Program-made: the position numbers and the translations under genes
The notes under the pieces: model-generated
Database searches by the model: none
What the model was told of the DNA's origin: nothing
Seen by the model: the letters and a program-made list of their open reading frames with translations, nothing else
Assembly (NCBI GenBank): GCA_000004695.1
Contig: CM000153.2
Location: 4,640,001-4,704,000 of the forward strand
DNA from: Dictyostelium discoideum
Taxonomy: Eukaryota
Direction of reading: 5' to 3'
DNA: 64,000 nt
Part shown: in pieces, positions 2,400 through 45,012 of the stretch
Layout of the letters: every line of letters starts with the position of its first letter
How positions within the stretch are numbered: the stretch's first letter is position 1

Positions 2400-2560
2400 C
2401 CAGGAAAGTTATTTAAAAAATCAAAACTATATTTATCATTTGTTTGATGTATATGAATTTTTTTTTTTTTTTTTTTAAAAAAATTTATATCTTTCTATTT
2501 TTAGAAAAGAATTATACTGAAAACATATTTCATATTTTCGTGCATAAACAACAAAATGAA

Positions 2561-2598
<38 letters not shown>

Positions 2599-2678
2599 TT
2601 GCATTTTTAATTTTTTTTTTTTAATTTTTTTTTTTTCTTATGTTAACATAATCAAAAAGACGATAAATAAATAAAAAA

Positions 2679-4379
2679 ATGTTTCGAATAATTAAAAATG
2701 TTAATAAATTATTAATAAATAATAATAATAGTTATTATAATAATAATAGTAGAAATTTACAAATTAAAAATTATTTTGCATCATCTAAAAAGGAAATAGG
2801 TGAAATTATTGAAAAAAGGATGGATAGAGGAAAAATAAAAGAAAGGAAAAAAACCAAATTTGTAAGTCAAGCATATAGAAGTATAATAGAAAGAAGAGAA
2901 GAAGAGGTTGTTATTATTGATAAAATAAGGATGGATACAGGAGAAATAAAAGAAAGTCAGACAAATTATACAAGTGTTCCAGAAAGAGGAGAAACAGAGG
3001 ATATTGCTAATGATGAAAAAAAGTCAAATTCACCCAAATCATTACATATTACAGATTTAATAGAATTTTGTAATACACATAATCAAGAGATTGAACAAAA
3101 TTTAAAAGATAAATCAAAGAAACCAATGGCATTATGTTTTGCATACAATGGCTCCAAATATTATGGATCATCGTATTCTTTTGATATCAGATTTCCAGCA
3201 ATTGAAAACCTAATAGAGAAATCCTTAATTAGAAATGGTCATATAGCATTGGAGAATATTGGTAATTTAAAAAGAATAAAGTTAAGTAGAAGTAGTAGAA
3301 CTGATAAAGGTGTTCATTCAGTATCGACTGTTATTTCAGCATTTCTATTAATTGACAAAGAAACAGAGAGACTTGCCCAATTTGGCACGCCACCACAATA
3401 TTTCATTGATAATATTAATCGTTATTTACCATCTGATATAAGATTAATTTCAGCGACAAAACCAAGTCGTACATTTAGAGCAAGACCAGCATCCAAAAGT
3501 AGAGTTTATAATTATTTAGTACCAATGGATCATTTAAAAGATATTTCAATCGATCGAATGAATAGCATACTTTCAAATTTCATTGGTACTTCTTCTTTCC
3601 ATAATTACACTTATCAACGTTTTACTTATCTTGATAGTAATACATTAAAGAAATTATCAAAAATTAATGATACTCAAGATGAGAATGAAAATAATGACGA
3701 TGAGGAGGATGAGGAGGAGGATGATGAAGAAGATGGTAATGATAATACAAAAATTGATATTGAAAAAGAAGTTGAAGAATTAGAGAAATTAGAAAATAAA
3801 AAAAATATAGAAATAGATAGATTGGCTGAAAGTGAATTATTTAGAAAGAATCCAGTAAATGTTAGAACAATTATGAATTTTTATGTTGAAAAAGAAACTG
3901 TACTATTTGAAGGTAAACAATGGTATAGATTCGTTGTAGTTGGTGATTCATTTTTAATGTATCAAATTAGAAAAATGATGGGTTTCTTCCTTTCAGTTGT
4001 TAAAGGTTATCAAAATGAGATAGGACTCCAATTATCTTTGAAATCACCATTTTCAATCTGTTCTCCAATTTCACCTCCTTTTCCTTTATTTTTATATGAT
4101 GTTAATTTTCCAAGGGAAAAAATTTTACTCCCAGTATCCAGACAAATACAAAATGAATTTTTAAATTCTAAATTAATGCCACATCTCCACAAAATAGAAA
4201 ATGAAACTAATCAATTCTCTGAATTTTTTAATCAATTATCAACTTTTAATTTCCGTTTAGATGATATTGATCAATTAATAATATTAAATAAAGAATTTCA
4301 TGAAAAAATTGAACTAAAAAAAGCAGAAAGAGAAAAAAGAATAGAAGATTATAATAATAATTATAATAATAATAATAAT

Positions 4380-4456
<77 letters not shown>

Positions 4457-4526
4457 TAATAATTATAATTATAATAATAATTATAATAATATTTATAATA
4501 ATTATAATAATTATAAGCGTAAATAA
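2679..4526 (+). CDS. tRNA pseudouridine synthase of the TruA/Pus1-Pus3 family, with a long C-terminal poly-Asn tail.
   Basis: A 615-aa intronless ORF containing the TruA catalytic signature SRTDKGVHSVSTV (RTDxGVH) and surrounding TruA-like core. The C-terminus is an N-rich low-complexity region (AAT/AAC run 4340-4500). Confidence 0.8.
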
Positions 4527-4642
4527 ATAAATAAATAAATAAATGAAAAAATAAAAAAAGAAAGAAGGAATGTACATTTTTTATTTTATTTTATTATATT
4601 TTATTTTATTTTATTTTATTTTATTTTATTTTATTTTATTAT

Positions 4643-4987
4643 CTAATTTGAAGTAAATGTAATTAAAATTAAAAATGATGGATATATTATAAATGGAAGT
4701 AAAGCTGCAATTGAGTATCTTCTAATATGTTTATTTGGTTCTTGAATATACATTATTGAATAAATTAATGGGAAATATAATAATAATCCAATGAAAAAGA
4801 ATAATCTTGCATAATAATAATGTTTACATTTTATTTTATCTTGTCTAAAATCAATATAATTATTTTGTTTTTCTTGTTGATCTTGTGTGTATTTTTTTTC
4901 TTTATTTTTGAAATTAATATTATTATTTTCTTCTAATAAACTTTCACTATCATTTAAAATATAATTTTTATTATTTTGAAAAACCAT
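4643..4987 (-). CDS. Hypothetical small membrane protein (114 aa, two predicted TM helices).
   Basis: ORF-track ORF with two hydrophobic stretches (FFFIGLLLYFPLIYSIMYI and AALLPFIIYPSFLILITF). No recognisable domain. Confidence 0.3.
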   Translation of the reverse strand: MVFQNNKNYILNDSESLLEENNNINFKNKEKKYTQDQQEKQNNYIDFRQDKIKCKHYYYARLFFFIGLLLYFPLIYSIMYIQEPNKHIRRYSIAALLPFIIYPSFLILITFTSN

Positions 4988-5437
4988 TTTTATTTTTATT
5001 TTAATTATTACTTTAAAATGGTTATGTAAATTTTTAATTTTCTTTTTTTTCTTTTTATTTTCTCTTTTCTTTTATTTTTTTTTTTTTTTATTTTTTTTTT
5101 TTATTTTTATTTTCATTTTCATTAAAAATATTAATGAAATAACAAACCCATTGCATATTCATATATGGTTTCATTTTTTAAAAATTATTTTGAGTAATTT
5201 ATTGATTAGGTTTTAAAAATTATGTGTGGTATGAAAAATAATAATTAAAAAATCTAAACAACCACACCCACAACACATTATCATTTTTAAAAAATTTTTA
5301 AAATGTAAAAATGGTTTTTTTTTTTTGTTTAAAGAAAAAAAAAAAAAAAAAAATACTAAAATTAAAAATAAAAGGCATAGTTTAAGAAACTTTTAAACTA
5401 ATAAACAAATATATAATTTTATACTTAAAATAAATAA

Positions 5438-5722
5438 ATGACATTTGAAGAAATAGATTTAAAAGAAAATATAGATAAACATGTATTTGTTAAAACATGT
5501 CAATGTGGTATTAATTCATTCGATAATTCAGAATCAAAAAGATCAAAAATAATATTTATAATTGGTCACGTTTTTATTTTTATGCATTTATTTAATTTAC
5601 CAAAACTTTGGTCAAATAATGAAACTTCAAAAAGATATGCAATAGGTTCTTTATTTTGGTTAATTTTTTCAATTATAGTAATTTCTTATTCATTTTTATT
5701 TATTAAATTTAAAATGGTTTAA
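5438..5722 (+). CDS. Hypothetical small membrane protein (94 aa).
   Basis: An ORF with a CxC motif then two hydrophobic segments. No recognisable domain, and it could be spurious. Confidence 0.25.
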   Translation: MTFEEIDLKENIDKHVFVKTCQCGINSFDNSESKRSKIIFIIGHVFIFMHLFNLPKLWSNNETSKRYAIGSLFWLIFSIIVISYSFLFIKFKMV

Positions 5723-6320
5723 AACATTTTTAAATTAAATGTATAAAATTATCAAACTTTTAAAAAAAAATAAAAATAAAAATAAAAATAAAAATAAAAA
5801 TAAAAAATAAAAATAATAATTGTAATAACAAATAAAATTTTAATAATAAATCAAAATAATGTAAATCATCCTATTTTTTTTTTTTTTTTTTTTTTTCATT
5901 ATTATTTTTTTTATTTATATTTTATTTTTATTATTTTCATTATTATTATTTGAATATTTGTTAAAATTATTTCAACACACCAAACAATGTATAAAAACAA
6001 TAAATTACCCCCAAATAATTAATTTTATTAAGAATATTGAGGTGTGGTGTTTTTGTTTTATTCAATGAATTTCCTTTTTTTTATGACAGGTAGTGTGATA
6101 CTACAAGTTTGAAGAGCAAAATTATAAAAAAGATAAATATTTTGAATTTTATATTCAAATAAAATTCGAATATTTTAAATAATAATAATTTTTAATTTAT
6201 TTTTTATACATATAAAATAAATTTTTTTTTTTTTTTTATTTCTTTATTTAATTTTTTTTTTTTTTGATAGGATTTGATAATTAATTATAATACAAATCAA
6301 TTTTTTAAAAAAATTATATT

Positions 6321-7014
6321 ATGAAACTTTTAAATAGTCTTGTTTTATTAGCAGCTCTTTGTGCTATTACTGCAAATGGAAAAATTGTTGAAGGTAATTT
6401 TTCCTTTTTTTTTTTCTTTAAAAATTGGATTTTACCAATGTTAACATTTTCTTTATTAATTTTTAAAAACAATAGATACACCAGATCCATCAACAGTTTA
6501 TAATTTGTTTCAATTAAGTTCATCAGATGGAGGATGTGACCCAGCTGGTACCCATTCACCAGATGCCAATGTTAATGTATCAGTTGATAAATGTAGAAAT
6601 GTTTGTAACAAAAATATAAAGATCTCAAAGGGAACCTCAACAAATCAATTCACATTCCAAACTTATAATGATAATTCATGTAGTCAAGCCACATCAGATC
6701 AAGCATTATCATTCACATGTTCAGACAATGTTAAGAAACAATTAGGAACAAGTATTTATAGTGTCATTTGTAGTACTGGTAGTGATTCCACAAATCCAAC
6801 AAGTACTCCATCCACCACTCCATCTGCTACCCCAACTGTCACTCCATCCACCACTCCAACTGTTACCCCAACTGTCACTCCATCCACCACTCCAACTGTT
6901 GCCCCAACTGTTCCTCCAACTACTCCTCCATCCACAACAACTGGATCTGGTTCTACCGTGGTTGCATCATTTGGTTTAATTGTTTCTATTTTATTGGCTT
7001 CATTAGCTCTTTAA
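6321..7014 (+). CDS. PsA-like (prespore antigen family) cell-surface glycoprotein. It has a signal peptide, a Cys-containing globular domain, a Thr/Pro (PTVT-type) spacer and a GPI-anchor-like C-terminus. Two exons: 6321..6393 and 6476..7014.
   Basis: Exon 1 encodes MKLLNSLVLLAALCAITANGKIVE. The GTAATT donor is at 6394 and the acceptor at aacaatag ends at 6475, phase 1. Exon 2 has the TNQFTF motif, TPTVTPSTTPTVTPTVTP repeats and ends STTTGSGSTVVASFGLIVSILLASLAL. From memory this is close to D. discoideum PsA (NTNQFTF..PTVTPTVT..STTTGSASTVVASLSLIIFSMILSLC). Confidence 0.75.
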
Positions 7015-7354
7015 AATGATTTATTTGATTTTATTTTAACATTACTTTTTGTATCACCATAATTTTTTAAAAAATAAAAATAAAAAAAAACTTAACACGA
7101 AAAAAATAAATTATATTTTTTTTATATATTTTATTAGAAATTCCAAAAAAAAAAAAAAAATTATTATGGGTTATTTTAAATATAATTATTAATTATTTTA
7201 TTTTATTTTAGAAATGCACATAATTAAAAAAAAAAAAAAAAATATCTTCTTGATTTTTTAAAAAATTCCTTGGGTTAATTATTTTAAATATTATTATTAT
7301 TTTTATTTTATTTTTTTTTTTTTGATATTTTTAATACAGATTACTTTATTTTTT

Positions 7355-7397
<43 letters not shown>

Positions 7398-7467
7398 ATA
7401 TATTTATAGATTTTTTTTTTTTTTTTTTTTATTATTATTAATTAAAAAAAATCAAATTTAATAAGAA

Positions 7468-8340
7468 ATGAATAAAAAAGTAATTATTTTAACAGGTGGT
7501 ACAGATGGTATTGGAAGAAATTCATTAAATTATTTAATAAATGAAGATAATTTAAAATTAATTTTACCAATTAGAAATTTAGAAAAAGGTGAAAAGGTAA
7601 TTCAAGAATTAAAATTAATAAATTCAAATATTGATATTACAACTATGGAAATGGATTTATCATCATTTGAATCAATTAAATCATTTGTTAATGAATTTAA
7701 TAAATTGGGTTTACCATTACACACATTGGTAAATAATGCTGGTATTATGTCACCAATTTATAAAAAAACAGTTAATGGATTTGAGTCAACATTTGGTACA
7801 AATTATTTGGGTACATTTTTATTAACAAATTTACTTTTACCAAATTTAAAAAAATCAAATACTGAATCTGATAAAGGTAATATCGTTATTGTCACTAGTA
7901 GAATGCATTATTACGTCTCAACATTGGATATTGATAATTTGGAAAATATTAATGAATCCAATTTTTCAAGTGGTAATGAATATAATAAATCAAAAGTTTG
8001 TGATTTATTATTTGCATTTGAATTAAATAATAGATTAAAATCTGATGGTTATGATAAAATAATCAATGTTAATTCAATTCATCCTGGTTTTCAAATTACA
8101 TCATTGTCAAAAGATCATGGTTGGTTTTCAAATTATATAGTTTTACCAATTTTAACTTTTTTCTTGGGTAATAATATTAATGATATGGGTAAAGCCTTAG
8201 CTGAAATATCATTAAATAAATCAAATGTAAATGGTAAATACTTTCAATTAACTACTGAATCTCAACCTTCAAAATTAGTTACAAATAATGAAATTTCAAA
8301 ATCATTATGGGAAAAAACAATAAAATTACTTGAATTATAA
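7468..8340 (+). CDS. Short-chain dehydrogenase/reductase (SDR, retinol-dehydrogenase-like).
   Basis: A 290-aa ORF with the TGGTDGIGR Rossmann motif, an NNAG motif and catalytic YNKSK (YxxxK). Confidence 0.8.
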   Translation: MNKKVIILTGGTDGIGRNSLNYLINEDNLKLILPIRNLEKGEKVIQELKLINSNIDITTMEMDLSSFESIKSFVNEFNKLGLPLHTLVNNAGIMSPIYKKTVNGFESTFGTNYLGTFLLTNLLLPNLKKSNTESDKGNIVIVTSRMHYYVSTLDIDNLENINESNFSSGNEYNKSKVCDLLFAFELNNRLKSDGYDKIINVNSIHPGFQITSLSKDHGWFSNYIVLPILTFFLGNNINDMGKALAEISLNKSNVNGKYFQLTTESQPSKLVTNNEISKSLWEKTIKLLEL

Positions 8341-11767: not shown

Positions 11768-12761
11768 ATGGAATTAATTGAAGAGATTATTAATTTAGAT
11801 GAAGCAATTCAAGGTGAAACTAGAACAGAAATTATTTATACAAAATCACAAACACCATCAAATATAAAAATAATTGTAATTGCAGGTAATCCAGGTATTG
11901 AAAGTTTTTACCAAGAATTTGTAAAAGTTTTAAATTTATCATTTAATTCAAAATATGATATATATGGTGGTAAGTTGTATACAAAAATTTTATTTTATTA
12001 TTATTATTATTATTAATATTTTTATTAATATTTTTATTTATTTTTTAGTTGGACATATCGGACATTGTGGTAAAATTGAAAATAAAACATTTTCAGTTGA
12101 AGAACAAATTAAACATAAAGAATTATTTTTAGAATATTTATTAAAGAATAAGTATGGTGATAAGGATAGAAAAGATATAAAATTTATATTAATTGGTCAT
12201 TCAGTTGGAAGTTATATAAGTTTAAAAGTTGTGTCAAGGTTTAGTGAAAAGTTTGAATTCTTATCAGTGGTTAATCTATTCCCAACTTTTAAAAACCTTT
12301 ATGACGGCTTATCACCATTCATTAAAATGGTAGTCATGCGAGAATCTACACGTAATGGTTTATCAACATTCTTGCATTACATCCCATCCATTGTAGTTTC
12401 CAACGTATTGAAATGGATACTACCGTCGGACGAATCCCGAATAGCGGTCCAAAGTAAGATAAACTATTACTCAGCTTTGAATATCCTCTATATGGCATAC
12501 ACCGAAACTGAAGACATCAAAGAAATCGATGACGAATGTCACTCGGTTTTTAATTCACGTTTAAATCAATTACTTTTCATTTATGGTCAAACTGATAGTT
12601 ATACACCAAAATCATTCTATGATGAAATGAAACAGTTGTATCCAGCTGGAAATATCGAATATTCATCCTCTTATGTTCCACATGCTTTTGTATTACATCA
12701 TTCTCAAGAAGTTGCTTTAAGAGTTTCTGAATGGTTATCTTTAAACATTTTAAAAAATTAA
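11768..12761 (+). CDS. Alpha/beta-hydrolase, lipid-droplet-associated hydrolase (LDAH/UPF0554)-like. Two exons: 11768..11969 and 12049..12761.
   Basis: Exon 1 ends ...KYDIYG at the GTAAGT donor (11970). The acceptor ttttttag ends at 12048 and phase 1 is continuous. Exon 2 carries the GHSVG nucleophile elbow (GxSxG) and a C-terminal His region. Confidence 0.65.
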
Positions 12762-39169: not shown

Positions 39170-39455
39170 TTTATATCATTTAATAATAAAATAAATTAAA
39201 TGATTTATAAAAAAAAAAAAAAAAAAAAAAAAATTTCGTTAAAACTTGATCTATCTAAAAAAAAAACAATTTGGTTAAAACTTGATTTATAATATTTTCA
39301 GAAAAAAAAGTTTTTTTTTGTCAAAATTGTTGTCCTATTAAAATTTATAAAACATAAGGAGTCTCATATAAATTTTTTTAATTTTTTTTTTTGTCTAATA
39401 CATATATATTTTATCTTTACTAATTTCAGTCATTTTTAAACTTTCACCAATAGTT

Positions 39456-40028
39456 GTGCCATGTAAAATATGTGGCCAAAAGGTATCACTTTCTGATATA
39501 AAAAATCATATTTTAGATGAATGTATACCAGTTTTTTTAGACATTTATGGTTTAAGGCATCAATTACCAAATCAAAATGAATATAAATCCCTATTGGAAG
39601 AAAACAATAAATTAAAACATGAAGTTTACATTTTAAAAGAAGAAAATTCTAAACTAAGATATATATCATCCTCAAACTCAACAATTTCATCAAGATCAAG
39701 CGATGTATATCCAGTAGTATCAAATGAAAATAATGATAGCGAATTAGTAAAAAAGGAACCAATAGAATATAAAGAGTCAGAAATTAAATTTTATGATGAA
39801 TTTATAGATGTAGATTTAAATAATGATGCTTCAACATGCTTTTTAGCACAAACTTTTAAAGAAAAAAGTGAAGATGATAAAATAATTAATGTAATACATT
39901 GTCCTAAACCAGCAAGGGGGAGTTTAATAATTGATGTAATCCATGGTAATTATTCTATCACAGTGTGTAAATTTACACATTTTACAGAAATGAAATCATT
40001 GGAGGCGATTAGAAAAATATTTATGTAG
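39456..40028 (+). CDS. Hypothetical protein with an N-terminal C2HC-type zinc-finger-like motif (CKICGQKVSLSDIKNHILDEC) and a coiled-coil region. Start uncertain: the track M is a GTG, and a 5' exon may be missing.
   Basis: A 190-aa ORF immediately upstream of the Harbinger-like transposase gene. It could be co-mobilised, and it has no Myb/SANT signature. Confidence 0.3.
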   Translation: MPCKICGQKVSLSDIKNHILDECIPVFLDIYGLRHQLPNQNEYKSLLEENNKLKHEVYILKEENSKLRYISSSNSTISSRSSDVYPVVSNENNDSELVKKEPIEYKESEIKFYDEFIDVDLNNDASTCFLAQTFKEKSEDDKIINVIHCPKPARGSLIIDVIHGNYSITVCKFTHFTEMKSLEAIRKIFM

Positions 40029-40134
40029 TTTCCAAAAGGTGTTGGAAACTACATAAATATTGAAATTCATATTGGTTATTGGTAATCCAGATGATTTTAT
40101 TTTTAAATGATCTGTACATTTAAAACCACATACA

Positions 40135-41317
40135 ATGCATTTTCCAATTCTTAATGGATCAGCTTTATTTACATCTTCTTTTTTTGAATCTAAAGTCATT
40201 GGAGCTCTTAGAATTTTTAATAATACTAGTTTAAAAGTGTGGAAAAATTATCATGAAAGTAAGTATTTTTATATTAATTTAAAAATTTTAATTTTAATAT
40301 TTATTAATATTTTGATATATTAGTTTTAGAAGAAAAAAATAATAAATTAGTAAATCATACACAACATAAAATAAACAACATTGCCACAGAAGAAACAATT
40401 GATGATACAACTTCAAGTAATCAAAGTGAGCCAAGTAAGCCAAGCAAGCCAAGTAAGCCAAGTGAGCCAAGTGAACCAAGTGAGCCAAGTGAACCTGTTA
40501 ATGCAACTACAACAATAGAAGGTAAAAAAAGAAAATACACAAAAAAAAAATAAAAAAAAAATAGTAGTTTATTAAATAATTTATAAATTAATTAAGACTT
40601 CTATTGTTTTTTAATTTTATTATTATTTTTTCATACTAATATTAGTATATTTGTTTTTAAAAAGGATTAAATGATAAAGATTTTAAATCGTTAATTGGGA
40701 TTACTAAGATTCAATTTCAAGATTTATTAAATAAAATTTCACAAAAAACAAAAAAAAAGAGATAACAGGGGGAGATCAAGTATTTATAATGTAAAAGGTA
40801 AACTTATTATAACTATGATTTGGCTTCGTCATTATCTCAAACCGATTATTTTTAAAATTTTATTTAAAGTGAGAATGTTATAAGAAATTATACAGATCAA
40901 ATAGTTGAAATTTTATATTTATTATCTTTTGATAGTTTTAATTATCACACAATTAATAGGATTAATCAAAAAGCAGTTTTTATTAATGAATTAAATGAGC
41001 AATGTATTGTTACATCCATTGTGGATAGATCAGAGCAAAGATCAGTAGTTGCATTGGATAAAATAGCTAAAATTAACAACTTCAGTGCTAAAAAAGGATA
41101 TCCTACATTAACCAAATTCGTTTTTTGTAGCCCTGATGGTAAAATACAATATTTATCGAAAAGTAGAAATGGATCAAGGAATGACCAATCCATGATGTAT
41201 GAAGTTAGTGAATTTATTAATAAATTCGATGACTCTTGTGAACATATAATGGGCGATAAAGGCTTTCAAGGATCCGATAAATTATATTCTAAATTTTTAG
41301 TAATTTCGAGAAAAACC

Positions 41318-41369
<52 letters not shown>

Positions 41370-41659
41370 TAATAATAATAATAATAATAATAAAAATAAT
41401 AATGATGGTGATATAAATGGAGAATGTTTTGAACCAGAATATTATATAAGCGATGAAAAAGAATCAGAAGCAAGGTTTAAATCGATTAGAATAATAATTG
41501 AAAATGTTTTTGCTCATTAAAAAATATTCAATTACCTGTCTCACTTTTAGATTTAAGAATAAGATTGAATCAACAACTTTATTGGACTATCATCATAAAA
41601 TTTGGTGTGTTGTTGCATTTTTGGTTAACTTGTATGTTGAAATTAGAAAGAAAGAATAA
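40135..41659 (+). mobile_element. Degenerate Harbinger/PIF-superfamily DDE transposase gene (DDE_Tnp_4-like). Upstream exons are 40135..40256 and 40324..40499. The main exon from 40667 has an HTH region, three frameshifts, an internal poly-Asn insertion, and a D..D..E core.
   Basis: Spliced in phase as ...KNYHE|ILEEKNNKLVNH...SEPSKPSKPSKPSEPSEP...TTIEG|GLNDKDFKSLIGITKIQFQDLLNKISQKTKKKR. After a +1 shift in an A9 run comes RDNRGRSSIYNVKGKLIITMIWLRHYLKPIIFKILFK (GRPR/WLR.Y Harbinger motifs). After another shift comes SENVIRNYTDQIVEIL...QCIVTSIVDRSEQ...KKGYPTLTKFVFCSPDGKIQYL...HIMGDKGFQGS... (41021-41416 ORF in the track). Then (N)17, then ESEARFKSIRIIIENVFAH|LKKYSITCLTFRFKNKIESTT...IWCVVAFLVNLYVEI (a -1 shift at GCTCATTAAAAAAT). 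Confidence 0.7.
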
Positions 41660-42181
41660 ACTCTCATATTAATTTAATATGAAAAAAACATTTTCATTTC
41701 AAAAAAAAAACTTTTTTTTCTGAATATATTATAATATGAATAAAATAAAATTTAATTTACCCCAAAAATATCTTACACAAAGGATTTAATTTTTATTTTA
41801 AAAAGATTTTTCGGCATTATATTTTAATCAAAGGGGCTGCCAGGAATGAAAATATCTTAAGCCTATAGAATTTTCTAAATTTTTTTTTTTTTTGAGACCA
41901 CCTTTTCCATATCACTCACCTTGGAATTTCTTTTTTTTTTTTTTTTTATTTTTTTTTAATATTGATTAATCATAGTTTATACTTAAAGGAAATACACAAT
42001 AACTAATAGTTTTATTTAGAAATTTTTTTACTTCATTTTATAATTTAGTTTTTCGATTTTGGTTTGAATTTTAAAATAGTGTTGTTGGTTTTGTTATTAT
42101 TATATTATATTATTTTTTTTTTTTTTTTATATTTTATTTATATGAATTGGTTGAATGAGATGAGATTTGGTCGCACAAAGT

Positions 42182-42747
42182 GTTTTCCGAGACGATTTTT
42201 TTTTTTTTTTTTTGATATAAATAAACTATTGTAGTATACAATTAGTATGTTATTTTTATTTATTTATTTTAGGTTTTTTAGTTTTTGTGAATTTAAAATG
42301 GTATGTTATTTTAGATTAGGTAATTAATAATTAATTGGTGGTGTAATTGTTGGAATTGGTTCATAAGTGTTTATGCTCCATTCTTTTTTAAATTTTTTGA
42401 TTGTTTCGGACCATTGGGTTTCTTTTTGAGTTTTTGTGAGGTTGTTTTTAATTGAGTAATGGTTGAAGTTTGATAATGTTCTTGAATATTCCAATCTTAT
42501 TAGCTTGTGCCATTTTGATTTTAATATATCATAATCTAGTGTTGTGTTGTTTATTTGGTTGTTCCAATTATCAATTGATTGAGTTATATTGATGTCAAAT
42601 AATGATTTGCATAACCATATCCATATTTGGTGAATAACTAATGAGATTATGTTCCAATATGCATGTGTTCTGACTAGATCAAGATTTGTGTTTATATAAT
42701 TCCAGTTGAACCTGTATTTTTTATATTGTGCGTTTTCCGAGACGAGA
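42182..42747 (-). mobile_element. 5'-truncated non-LTR retroelement (TRE3-like) inserted about 45-55 nt downstream of the tRNA gene, just past its external B box. It has a poly(A) tail and a 14-bp target-site duplication GTTTTCCGAGACGA.
   Basis: TSD copies are at 42182-42195 and 42732-42745. Poly(T) on the plus strand (poly(A) of the element) is at 42196-42213, abutting the first TSD. The minus-strand ORF (42324..42764 in the track) covers the 3' end of ORF2, and the plus strand is G/T-rich like the element at 1-1270. Confidence 0.65.
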
Positions 42748-42762
42748 ATCGAACACTCGACC
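42737..42762 (-). promoter_or_regulatory. External B box (ex-B, RNA polymerase III TFIIIC site) downstream of the tRNA gene.
   Basis: The minus strand reads GGTCGAGTGTTCGATTCTCGTCTCGG. GTGTTCGATTCTC matches the B-box consensus GGTTCGANTCC and lies about 33-45 nt 3' of the tRNA, which is the typical Dictyostelium ex-B position. Confidence 0.55.
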
Positions 42763-42788
42763 AATTTCCCCTGTAAAAAAAAAAAAAT

Positions 42789-42884
42789 TGGAGAAGAAGG
42801 GTATCGATCCCTTTACCTTATGGAAATCTGATTATCGTTGCTGTTTATGCAAACCATACGCTCTACCATATGAGCTACATCCCC
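42789..42884 (-). tRNA. tRNA-Ala (anticodon UGC) with a 23-nt intron between positions 37 and 38.
   Basis: The minus strand reads GGGGATG TA GCTC ATATGGTA GAGC G TATGG TTTGCA [TAAACAGCAACGATAATCAGATT] T CCATA AGGTA AAGGG ATCGATA CCCTT CTTCTCC A. It has a 7-bp acceptor with G3:U70 (Ala identity; U6:U67 mismatch), a 4-bp D stem, a 5-bp anticodon stem, a 5-bp T stem, and an A box TAGCTCATATGG. The 5' half and T arm are near-identical to the human tRNA-Ala as recalled from memory. Confidence 0.8.
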
Positions 42885-42915
42885 ATTGACGAAAAAATTT
42901 AATTAATAGCAGTTA

Positions 42916-43768
42916 CCATATTAATAGTGTAATCAGAAACAACAACAACAACAAAACAACAACAAAACAAAATCAACTACAACTACAACTACACTGGCAA
43001 TGCAAGCAAGCATGGACCCAATTAAAAACTCCACAAAATAAACAAACACACTACGAACACCTCCCAAAATTAAAAAAAATATACGAGGATATGATGACAA
43101 CTCAATCTCCAGAACACAACAAATTCATACCAACTCCTGGCCAAAAAGAAATAATGACCAAAATTAATAGCAAACACCTTCCATTTAAAGAAATCAAAAA
43201 AATAATAAACATGAAAGGTAGAGATCTATTATGGAGATACACACTGAAAGCATTACCAAAAATATACAACATGCCATGCCAACAGTGTGGGGAAGATGAG
43301 ACTTCAGAACATATATTCTTCAACTGCAAAGCCCACATCAAAAACACACAAGAAATATTCAACTACACCCTAACTAAGTGTGGACACACCACTCACACCT
43401 GGAATGTGAAGATTTTAAACCATCTACAAATCGCACTAGTAGCCAATTTAATAGCTATTATATTCGAAAGAATCTGGCACAAAAGAAATAAACTCATTCA
43501 CGATGAAAAAGAAATAATAATTCACAGACAACAAGTCATACGTGAACTGATTAAAACACAAAGAGCTGCATGGGACAGGACACAAGCGGTTATAAACAAA
43601 ACATTAAGAATCAAATCAAAGCAACGGCCAGAAGAACAAAATAAATTAGACTCCTTAATTTCGGTAAAGCTATTCCAATTTAGCAGACAAGGGAACTCCC
43701 CTTTTTCCCCAAAAAAAATTTCCGAAACATTTCAAAAAAAAAAAAAATTCCCCCGGGCTTTTTTTTAA

Positions 43769-43844
<76 letters not shown>

Positions 43845-44138
43845 TGGGAACCCAAGTTAATCAGAAAATTTCCAGATTTTTAACTTTTTAAAGAAAAATA
43901 AAAAAAATAGAAAGAAAATAAAATGAAAATCACAAACAACACCACAAATATTAAGCAACACAAATGCCTACAAAAAATAAGCGAAATTGTGGATAAAACT
44001 CAATTAAAAAAAAAACAATTCAAATACGTCATAAACATCAATCACGAACCAGACGATAAAATAAAAAAAGATTTAGAAAAAAGTTTGGACAAAAAAGATG
44101 TTTTAATCAAAAGTAATAATACAATTCAAAATTCGAAA

Positions 44139-44184
<46 letters not shown>

Positions 44185-44285
44185 CCAACCCCTCTTTTAG
44201 AGACCCTGTAAAAAAAAAAAAAAAATAAAATAAAATGAGATCTAGCATCTCAAGGAGAAGCAAATAATAATTGCGTTATCCAATT

Positions 44286-44318
<33 letters not shown>

Positions 44319-44331
44319 ATATTAATAGTGT
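42916..44331 (+). mobile_element. TRE5-A-like non-LTR retrotransposon, 5'-truncated (about 1.39 kb: ORF2 C-terminus, oligo(A), C-module-like 3' region, terminal poly(A)). It is inserted 46-47 bp upstream of the tRNA-Ala gene and flanked by a 15-bp target-site duplication CCATATTAATAGTGT.
   Basis: TSD copies are at 42916-42930 and 44317-44331, and the element body is 42931-44316. An open ORF runs from the 5' junction to 43768 with a CCHC-like motif (CQQCGEDETSEHIFFNCKAH) typical of the ORF2 C-terminus. An A69 run is at 43773-43841, followed by about 450 bp of 3' sequence and A30. The 47-bp distance and divergent orientation match TRE5-A targeting upstream of tRNA genes as I recall it. Confidence 0.7.
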
Positions 44332-44749
44332 TACAATTCAAAAAAAAAAAAAAAACATATTAAGATGGTTATTAAGGAAGAATTATATTAGTAATTCTAG
44401 AGAAAAAGTAACGAATAATTTAGTGATTTTGCGAGGTGAGATTTGATTAAGAAAATTAAACTATCTTGTTCAATCCTTATAAATAAAATTTAATAGCTCT
44501 ATTTATCGCCTTTTTTATCCTAACTTTGTGTAAAAGAATATCCACAATTTCATCAAAAACCTAGATCCTTAAAAATAAATTTAATTTAAATTATTATATA
44601 ATTGTTTAAAATCAAATAAAGAAAAATCTTGATAAGGTCATAAAAGGCAAAAGAATGTTTAATTAATATAAAAAAGTCAATAATATATTAATATCTAAAA
44701 ATAAAAAAAAATGGGTAACACTTTTTTATAATTATTTAATTAATTTATT

Positions 44750-45012
44750 TTATTTTATTTTTGAAATCAAATCATTTTTGAAATAGAATGAATAATCAAT
44801 ATCACTATCTTTTATAAAATCAAGCAATTCCAAGTCATTAGCTAACAATGCTCTTTTGTTAATTTCTTCAAAATCCCAAACGAAAAAGTCTTTGTGATTC
44901 TTGAAAATATAGATAAACAAATCTTTATTTTGAACAAATATTGAAGCAGATAAATAATCATCTTTAATGAATGAATTATCTCTATTTAAAATTTTAATAT
45001 CAACATTATATC

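Follow-up and report, generated by a model that had tools for sequence, protein, structure and literature searches.

Retroelements of the TRE5 and TRE3 types accompany many tRNA genes of Dictyostelium discoideum: 61% of these genes have at least one TRE, and 13% have both a TRE5 and a TRE3 (PMC5006619). TRE5-A lies upstream of the tRNA gene in the opposite orientation, within a window of 44-54 bp (PMC5911963) and with a modal distance of 47+/-3 bp (PMC5391098), and TRE3 integrates 40-150 bp downstream in the same orientation (PMC5911963). Targeting proceeds via the TFIIIC/TFIIIB complex on the B box, and the ORF1 protein of TRE5-A binds TFIIIB subunits (PMC5911963, PMC5633606). For TRE3, published work takes as its reference the B box or the external B box (ex-B), the latter described in PMC5911963. 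Here we analyzed a 64-kb stretch of D. discoideum nuclear DNA (GC content 21.1%), referred to below as the window. It contains a locus that we interpret, with high confidence, as an ordinary intron-bearing tRNA-Ala(UGC) gene bracketed by a truncated TRE5-A upstream and a truncated TRE3 downstream, two independent insertions targeted to a gene of RNA polymerase III (Pol III). The tRNA gene is intact and most likely functional, and both TRE fragments are dead. Besides the window, we compared the same locus in a second assembly (L002, GCA_054883475.1), the D. citrinum locus L005, and the loci L003, L004, L006, L007, L008 and L009. Feature coordinates are collected in Table 1.

The upstream insertion is delimited by a perfect 15-bp target-site duplication (TSD), CCATATTAATAGTGT, which occurs exactly twice in the window against 0.02 expected occurrences. 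The first base of the element (42931) is separated by 46 bp from position +1 of the tRNA gene (42884), and both this distance and the opposite orientation fall within the window and mode published for TRE5-A. What remains of its second open reading frame (ORF2) is 97% identical to DDB_G0276495, which appears as 'TRE5-A ORF2' in a dictyBase-derived table (PMC12405889). The zinc knuckle in this part was accompanied by a weak match to zf-RVT (E = 0.025). At the DNA level, the ORF2 part is 92.7% identical to another copy, which is head-to-head with a tRNA-Met gene, and further TRE5-A copies face a tRNA-Leu or a tRNA-Thr gene head-to-head from a position about 50-54 bp upstream.

The tail that follows ORF2 is diagnostic for the family. 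Window positions 43794-44134 matched a TRE5-A.2-like element of AB-ORF1-BC structure at L004, with 97% identity to its 5' B-module and 88% to its 3' B-module. An ATG at 43923, inside the 3' B-module of the window, opens 67 codons identical to the start of the 444-aa ORF1 of the L004 element. TRE5-A alone has a 3' B-module (290 bp), the 3' copy being absent from TRE5-B and TRE5-C (PMC3159450, PMC5006619). Positions 44201-44298 matched the L004 C-module at 94%, and the last 57 nt before the A30 tail fold into hairpins (-11.3 kcal/mol, z = -2.86); the published C-module measures 134-137 bp and has an essential terminal stem-loop (PMC3159450). Considering the ORF2 match, the 3' B-module with its ORF1 start and the C-module, the upstream element is, as judged from its sequence, TRE5-A itself, cut to its last ~1.3 kb. 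The element start, AATCAGAAACAACAAC, was also considered as the 5' end of an A-module, implying an internal deletion, and was rejected since it aligned colinearly inside the ORF2 of L003.

The downstream insertion is flanked by a perfect 14-bp TSD, GTTTTCCGAGACGA, with exactly two copies in the window and none expected. The fragment between them has the orientation of the tRNA gene, and its first base (42731) lies 57 bp past the tRNA 3' end (42789). It retains the last ~127 codons of ORF2, with the stop codon at 42324-42326, and its reading frame shares 98% identity with fragments from D. discoideum, among them DDB_G0274719. All proteins returned by the homologue searches for both element fragments were from Dictyostelium. 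The DDB_G identifiers of the relatives of the downstream fragment were found in none of the papers or supplements, and no source names their family.

Five further copies with the same 3' end (93-98% identity) were examined for tRNA neighbors. A tRNA gene precedes four of them, always in the orientation of the copy: tRNA-Ala(AGC) at 44 bp (L009), tRNA-Thr at about 60 bp (L006), tRNA-Gly at 84 bp (L004) and tRNA-Cys at no more than 122 bp (L008). No tRNA gene was present within the DNA examined around the remaining copy (L007). The L009 copy (2471-7770) is ~5.3 kb long, which fits the published length of either TRE3-A (5229 bp) or TRE3-B (5279 bp), and it carries a gene model with Exo_endo_phos and RVT_1 domains, representing the apurinic/apyrimidinic endonuclease (APE) and the reverse transcriptase (RT). 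Protein P0026 has an H-x4-C remnant of a zinc knuckle, located upstream of the point at which the window fragment is truncated. These features agree with the architecture of TRE3, a non-LTR element of ~4.7-5.3 kb with ORF1, an ORF2 encoding APE, RT and a zinc finger, and a poly(A). Since a downstream placement in the same orientation is the defining pattern of TRE3, we assign the fragment to this family, as which it behaves by its integration, its TSD, its poly(A) and the domains of the longer copies.

Between the two elements, the tRNA gene is the sole tRNA in the window. It scored 49.1 bits with Rfam family RF00005 (gathering score 29), and ARAGORN with the -i option reported a tRNA-Ala(tgc) with a 23-nt intron. 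Without the intron option, ARAGORN found no tRNA in the window, a miss that is due to the intron and that was resolved by -i. Direct reading of the sequence revealed G3:U70, A73, a U6:U67 mismatch, an A box (TAGCTCATATGG) and a B box (GGATCGATACC) with A54 and A60. The intron, set at the canonical 37/38 site, contains a GCAA segment complementary to U33-C36 of the anticodon loop. Once spliced, the tRNA can adopt a cloverleaf of -21.9 kcal/mol. A T13 run follows the gene, which we take to be the Pol III terminator. The locus therefore has the parts expected of a functional tRNA-Ala gene: a cloverleaf, the identity elements G3:U70 and A73, an anticodon for Ala, both internal boxes and a terminator. 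The Ala(UGC) tRNAs of yeast and human are not known to carry an intron, and a literature search for Dictyostelium tRNA-Ala introns found nothing. The view that an intron in a tRNA-Ala gene is uncommon holds for textbook model eukaryotes, where it is rare; here the intron is a conserved feature, with 22 of its 23 positions identical in D. citrinum.

A B-box-like sequence, TGTTCGATTCT, lies some tens of bp past the tRNA gene, on its downstream side, and was read as its ex-B box. Five of the seven tRNA genes that we inspected have a box of the GGTTCGATTC type 28-34 nt downstream; apart from the gene of the window, these are four other loci, the D. citrinum orthologue among them, with boxes at +28 to +31. 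The ex-B box of the window is intact and overlaps the proximal TRE3 TSD copy by 1-2 nt.

Most of this had been foreseen in the original prediction, which described an intron-containing tRNA-Ala(UGC) gene with a TRE5-type element upstream, a TRE3-type element downstream, TSDs and an ex-B box; every structural claim in it was upheld. Its outer limits, 42182 and 44331, are the exact outer edges of the two TSDs. The 23-nt intron, G3:U70 and the A and B boxes were confirmed by Rfam, ARAGORN -i and the sequence. The TRE5-like element, for which a divergent orientation, a distance of 46-47 bp upstream and a 15-bp TSD had been given, is indeed head-to-head at 46 bp with a perfect repeat. The ex-B box, expected at about +35-45 with a 2-nt overlap with the TSD, lies at +34 to +44 with an overlap of 1-2 nt, and the TRE3-like element next to it has the 14-bp TSD foreseen and starts 57 bp from the tRNA gene. 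Some details need correction. The end of TRE3 that adjoins the ex-B box is the truncated 5' end, and not the poly(A), which is located at the far end (42196-42213). The TRE5 tail had been described as a single 3' module; the ORF2 C-terminus and the A30 tail stand, while the tail consists of two modules, B and C, split by an A40 run that had gone unmentioned.

The orthologous interval in D. citrinum contains the same tRNA gene without the elements. We compared L005 12124-12875 (GCA_054859145.1) with window positions 39170-44750, that is, the interval between the orthologues of a gene for a 691-aa protein and a ComC_SSD gene. The D. citrinum tRNA-Ala(UGC) gene adjoins the orthologue of the 691-aa gene. 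Its exons are identical to those of D. discoideum at all 73 positions, U6:U67 included, in flanks that can barely be aligned. This degree of identity in exons and intron amid diverged flanks is a sign of purifying selection on a gene in use or of its concerted evolution. No TREs were found in the D. citrinum interval, which spans 0.75 kb against ~5.5 kb in D. discoideum, and the orientation of the tRNA gene relative to the flanking genes is opposite in the two species.

Table 1. Coordinates of the features of the tRNA-Ala(UGC) locus in the window; element names follow the assignments made in the text
Feature	Position	Strand	Remark
TRE3 TSD, distal copy, 14 bp, GTTTTCCGAGACGA	42182-42195		exact repeat
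A18 tail of TRE3 (T18 on + strand)	42196-42213	minus	end away from tRNA
5'-truncated TRE3 fragment, 536 bp	42196-42731	minus	ORF2 end, 3' untranslated region, A18 tail
TRE3 TSD, proximal copy, 14 bp, GTTTTCCGAGACGA	42732-42745		exact repeat
Ex-B box, TGTTCGATTCT	42745-42755	minus	+34 to +44 past tRNA; sequence reading
T13 run, presumed Pol III terminator	42775-42787	minus	begins 2 nt past tRNA 3' end
tRNA-Ala(UGC) gene	42789-42884	minus	Rfam RF00005 and ARAGORN -i
tRNA exon 2	42789-42824	minus	intron set at canonical 37/38 site
tRNA intron, 23 nt	42825-42847	minus	canonical 37/38 site
tRNA exon 1	42848-42884	minus	intron set at canonical 37/38 site
TRE5-A TSD, proximal copy, 15 bp, CCATATTAATAGTGT	42916-42930		exact repeat; 16 bp counting preceding A
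5'-truncated TRE5-A, whole	42931-44316	+	head-to-head with tRNA, between TSD copies
TRE5-A ORF2 C-terminal part, 279 codons	42931-43768	+	stop at 43768
CCHC zinc knuckle, C-x2-C-x7-H-x4-C	43277-43327	+	in ORF2 part
A71 run between ORF2 and B-module	43771-43841	+	A21 at same locus in GCA_054883475.1
TRE5-A 3' B-module, 298 bp	43842-44139	+	matches L004 B-modules
A40 run between B- and C-modules	44140-44179	+	A31 in GCA_054883475.1
C-module and A30 tail, 137 bp (107 bp + A30)	44180-44316	+	L004 match
A30 tail of TRE5-A	44287-44316	+	A28 in GCA_054883475.1
TRE5-A TSD, distal copy, 15 bp, CCATATTAATAGTGT	44317-44331		exact repeat

We considered other readings of each part of the locus. The tRNA-like sequence could be a pseudogene or a tRNA-derived repeat, in which case the retroelements would be relics around a dead Pol III target. 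Its acceptor-stem mismatch and its non-consensus T-loop are in line with this, as are a minimum-free-energy fold (-24.0 kcal/mol) that differs from the cloverleaf and a moderate Rfam score, although the latter can be ascribed to the penalty for the intron. Conversely, the mismatch recurs in D. citrinum, where the exons and nearly the whole intron have been preserved between flanks that have diverged, and G3:U70, A73, the A and B boxes, the T13 run and the ex-B box are all in place. We therefore consider a dead gene very unlikely. A second reading would assign the upstream element to TRE5-B, TRE5-C or a new TRE5 variant. Such an assignment could draw on the identity of just 92.7% to another copy, on protein matches to the ORF2 tail that range from 78 to 97%, and on the terminal C-module, in which TRE5-C also ends (PMC3159450); the 3' B-module specific to TRE5-A, with the first 67 codons of ORF1, and a best named homologue that is itself 'TRE5-A ORF2' make it highly improbable. 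For the downstream fragment, an exact 14-mer without expected chance occurrences that precisely flanks a unit ending in poly(A) is hard to reconcile with some other poly(A) retroelement or a segmental duplication beside an incidental repeat. Only 536 bp are left, without a Pfam domain, and we found no protein or paper that names the fragment as TRE3, yet its related copies show the defining behavior of TRE3 and the length fits TRE3-A or TRE3-B, so that a different origin seems extremely unlikely.

A broader alternative is that the intron-bearing tRNA-Ala(UGC) gene is a functional design that is specific to the D. discoideum group and no accident, and that the tRNA inversion and the 5-kb expansion may be traces of a rearrangement which mobile elements drove at a Pol III landmark. 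This reading derives from the identity of the exons, including U6:U67, and from the near identity of the intron in D. citrinum; we regard it as unlikely. Several points weigh against the interpretation we favor, an ordinary tRNA gene with two targeted insertions. Both the U6:U67 mismatch and the A54/A60 T-loop deviate from a generic tRNA. The downstream fragment is assigned to TRE3 at the level of the family (TRE3-A to -D), and its 3' ~550 bp is common to two otherwise divergent lineages. The last ~550 bp, the part that the window retains, of the copies at L007 7008-7540, L008 7075-7633 and L009 2471-7770 are 92-96% identical, and outside this part the same copies are unrelated or just ~65% identical in the RT region; a shared 3' end amid a diverged remainder suggests two TRE3 lineages with a common 3' end. 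In addition, we infer the positions of the nicks given below, as well as the dependence on TFIIIB and TFIIIC. Finally, the D. citrinum locus is too diverged beyond the tRNA gene and the ex-B box to provide an empty site that is exact to the base.

The junctions suggest how the two elements may have integrated. Both insertions probably occurred by target-primed reverse transcription, because their poly(A) tails point away from the tRNA gene, their 5' truncation is severe and their TSDs of 15 and 14 bp are perfect. The hallmarks of this process in the TRE5-A fragment are the A30 tail, the perfect 15-bp TSD and the retention of only the 3' ~1.3 kb. TRE5-A would have inserted at a distance of 46 bp upstream, its 5' end towards the 5' end of the tRNA gene; the tRNA-sense strand would have been nicked for priming between -31 and -32, and the second strand between -46 and -47. 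TRE3 would have integrated 57 bp downstream in the orientation of the tRNA gene; here the nick for priming would fall between +43 and +44, where the ex-B box has its distal edge, and the nick in the second strand between +57 and +58. As the original prediction anticipated, the TSDs allow both empty sites to be reconstructed. The predicted sites, each with one TSD copy, read GATTC TCGTCTCGGAAAAC ACTTTGTG on the tRNA strand for TRE3 and GTTA CCATATTAATAGTGT TACAATTC for TRE5-A.

The native flank past the distal TRE5-A TSD (window 44332-44355) reads TACAATTC-A16 and resembles the TRE5-A 3' terminus, CCAATTC-A(n). In D. citrinum, CCAATTCGAAAAAAA is found at an equivalent distance upstream of the tRNA gene (L005 ~12475-12495). 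The CAATTC-A16 flank was evaluated as a remnant of an earlier TRE5 3' end and rejected, since the motif is not statistically distinctive in such AT-rich DNA (8 matches against 4.1 expected) and a similar one is present in D. citrinum.

Part of the TRE5-A fragment in the window is probably corrupted. The ~115 bp to the left of the A71 run (region 43654-43841) contain ~25 substitutions in which the base copies its neighbor, and at those sites the second assembly (L002 17900-18036) and the independent TRE5-A copy at L003 agree with each other against the window. The A71 run and these ~115 bp are thus probably a sequencing or assembly artefact caused by slippage after the homopolymer. As the pattern resembles such slippage, the final ~38 codons of ORF2, as they read in the window, are probably corrupted and not real. 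The run had been given as A69; it counts as A71 and is probably inflated, being A21 in GCA_054883475.1. The remaining A runs also vary between the assemblies (Table 1).

The window is 99.4-99.6% identical to CM142510.1 of GCA_054883475.1 over ~31 kb without being byte-identical. Two single-exon flanking genes encode proteins that are also encoded exactly on CM142510.1, and GCA_054883475.1 was the sole assembly returned by an exact-protein look-up; a look-up by protein cluster found nothing, and a third homologue search returned only the D. citrinum orthologue and one paralogue. The same look-ups gave no record for a 225-aa ORF of the window or for the AX4 protein P0027. The GCA_054883475.1 annotation includes a 146-aa 'hypothetical protein' (P0028, ACTFIT_005311) that is a spurious chimera, corresponding to window 42324-42869 on the minus strand and L002 16570-17115. 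Its first exon (MVERMVCINSNDNQISI) derives from the D-arm, anticodon arm and intron of the tRNA-Ala gene and is spliced onto the ORF2 fragment of TRE3.

The 5-kb expansion in D. discoideum holds, besides TRE5-A and TRE3, a DDE gene of the Harbinger type. Its transposase domain, DDE_Tnp_4 (PIF/Harbinger-type), was detected at window 41021-41416 on the + strand (E = 2e-12), ~0.8 kb beyond the poly(A) end of TRE3 and inside a 292-aa gene model at ~40135-41659. The syntenic interval of D. citrinum lacks this gene as well as a neighboring 174-aa gene, so that a third mobile element may adjoin the tRNA gene.

The arrangement of TRE5-A, tRNA gene and TRE3 is already known in kind and is not special, given the published share of tRNA genes with both element types and two similar loci in our comparison. 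Both the tRNA-Thr(AGU) gene at L006 4388-4459 and the tRNA-Ala(AGC) gene at L009 2354-2426 likewise have TRE5-A upstream and TRE3 downstream; at L009, the TRE5-A homology reaches to ~15 bp from the tRNA gene, closer than usual. The locus described here shows Pol III-directed integration in clean, textbook form, with junctions that can be read to the base, suited for teaching or benchmarking, and it has little importance beyond annotation. By-products of the analysis are the local sequencing artefact in TRE5-A, the spurious protein model in GCA_054883475.1 and the conservation of the tRNA-Ala(UGC) intron in D. citrinum.

Among described systems, the upstream fragment corresponds to TRE5-A (formerly DRE). 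It has in common with that element an ORF2 C-terminus containing a CCHC knuckle, a 3' B-module in which the start of ORF1 is repeated, hairpins at the end of the C-module, a poly(A) tail, a TSD, 5' truncation and insertion 46 bp upstream in the opposite orientation. It differs in that no more than the final ~1.3 kb of the element's 5.65 kb is left and that, in this assembly, the end of ORF2 is probably corrupted and the first A run inflated. [quoted passage not shown]

Ty3 and Ty1 of Saccharomyces cerevisiae likewise take the Pol III transcription complex as the landmark that leads them to safe sites next to tRNA genes. Unlike the TREs, these are long terminal repeat elements that rely on an integrase instead of target-primed reverse transcription, and they insert upstream only, so that yeast has no counterpart with downstream targeting (PMC5911963).

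The tRNA gene itself compares with canonical intron-containing pre-tRNAs, such as yeast tRNA-Ile(UAU), Leu(CAA) and Tyr, in which a short intron likewise follows the anticodon on its 3' side after one nucleotide. The pairing trait of these pre-tRNAs is also shared, as the GCAA of the intron would be able to pair with U33-C36. The locus differs from them in its isotype, Ala(UGC), with an intron that has been kept between D. discoideum and D. citrinum.

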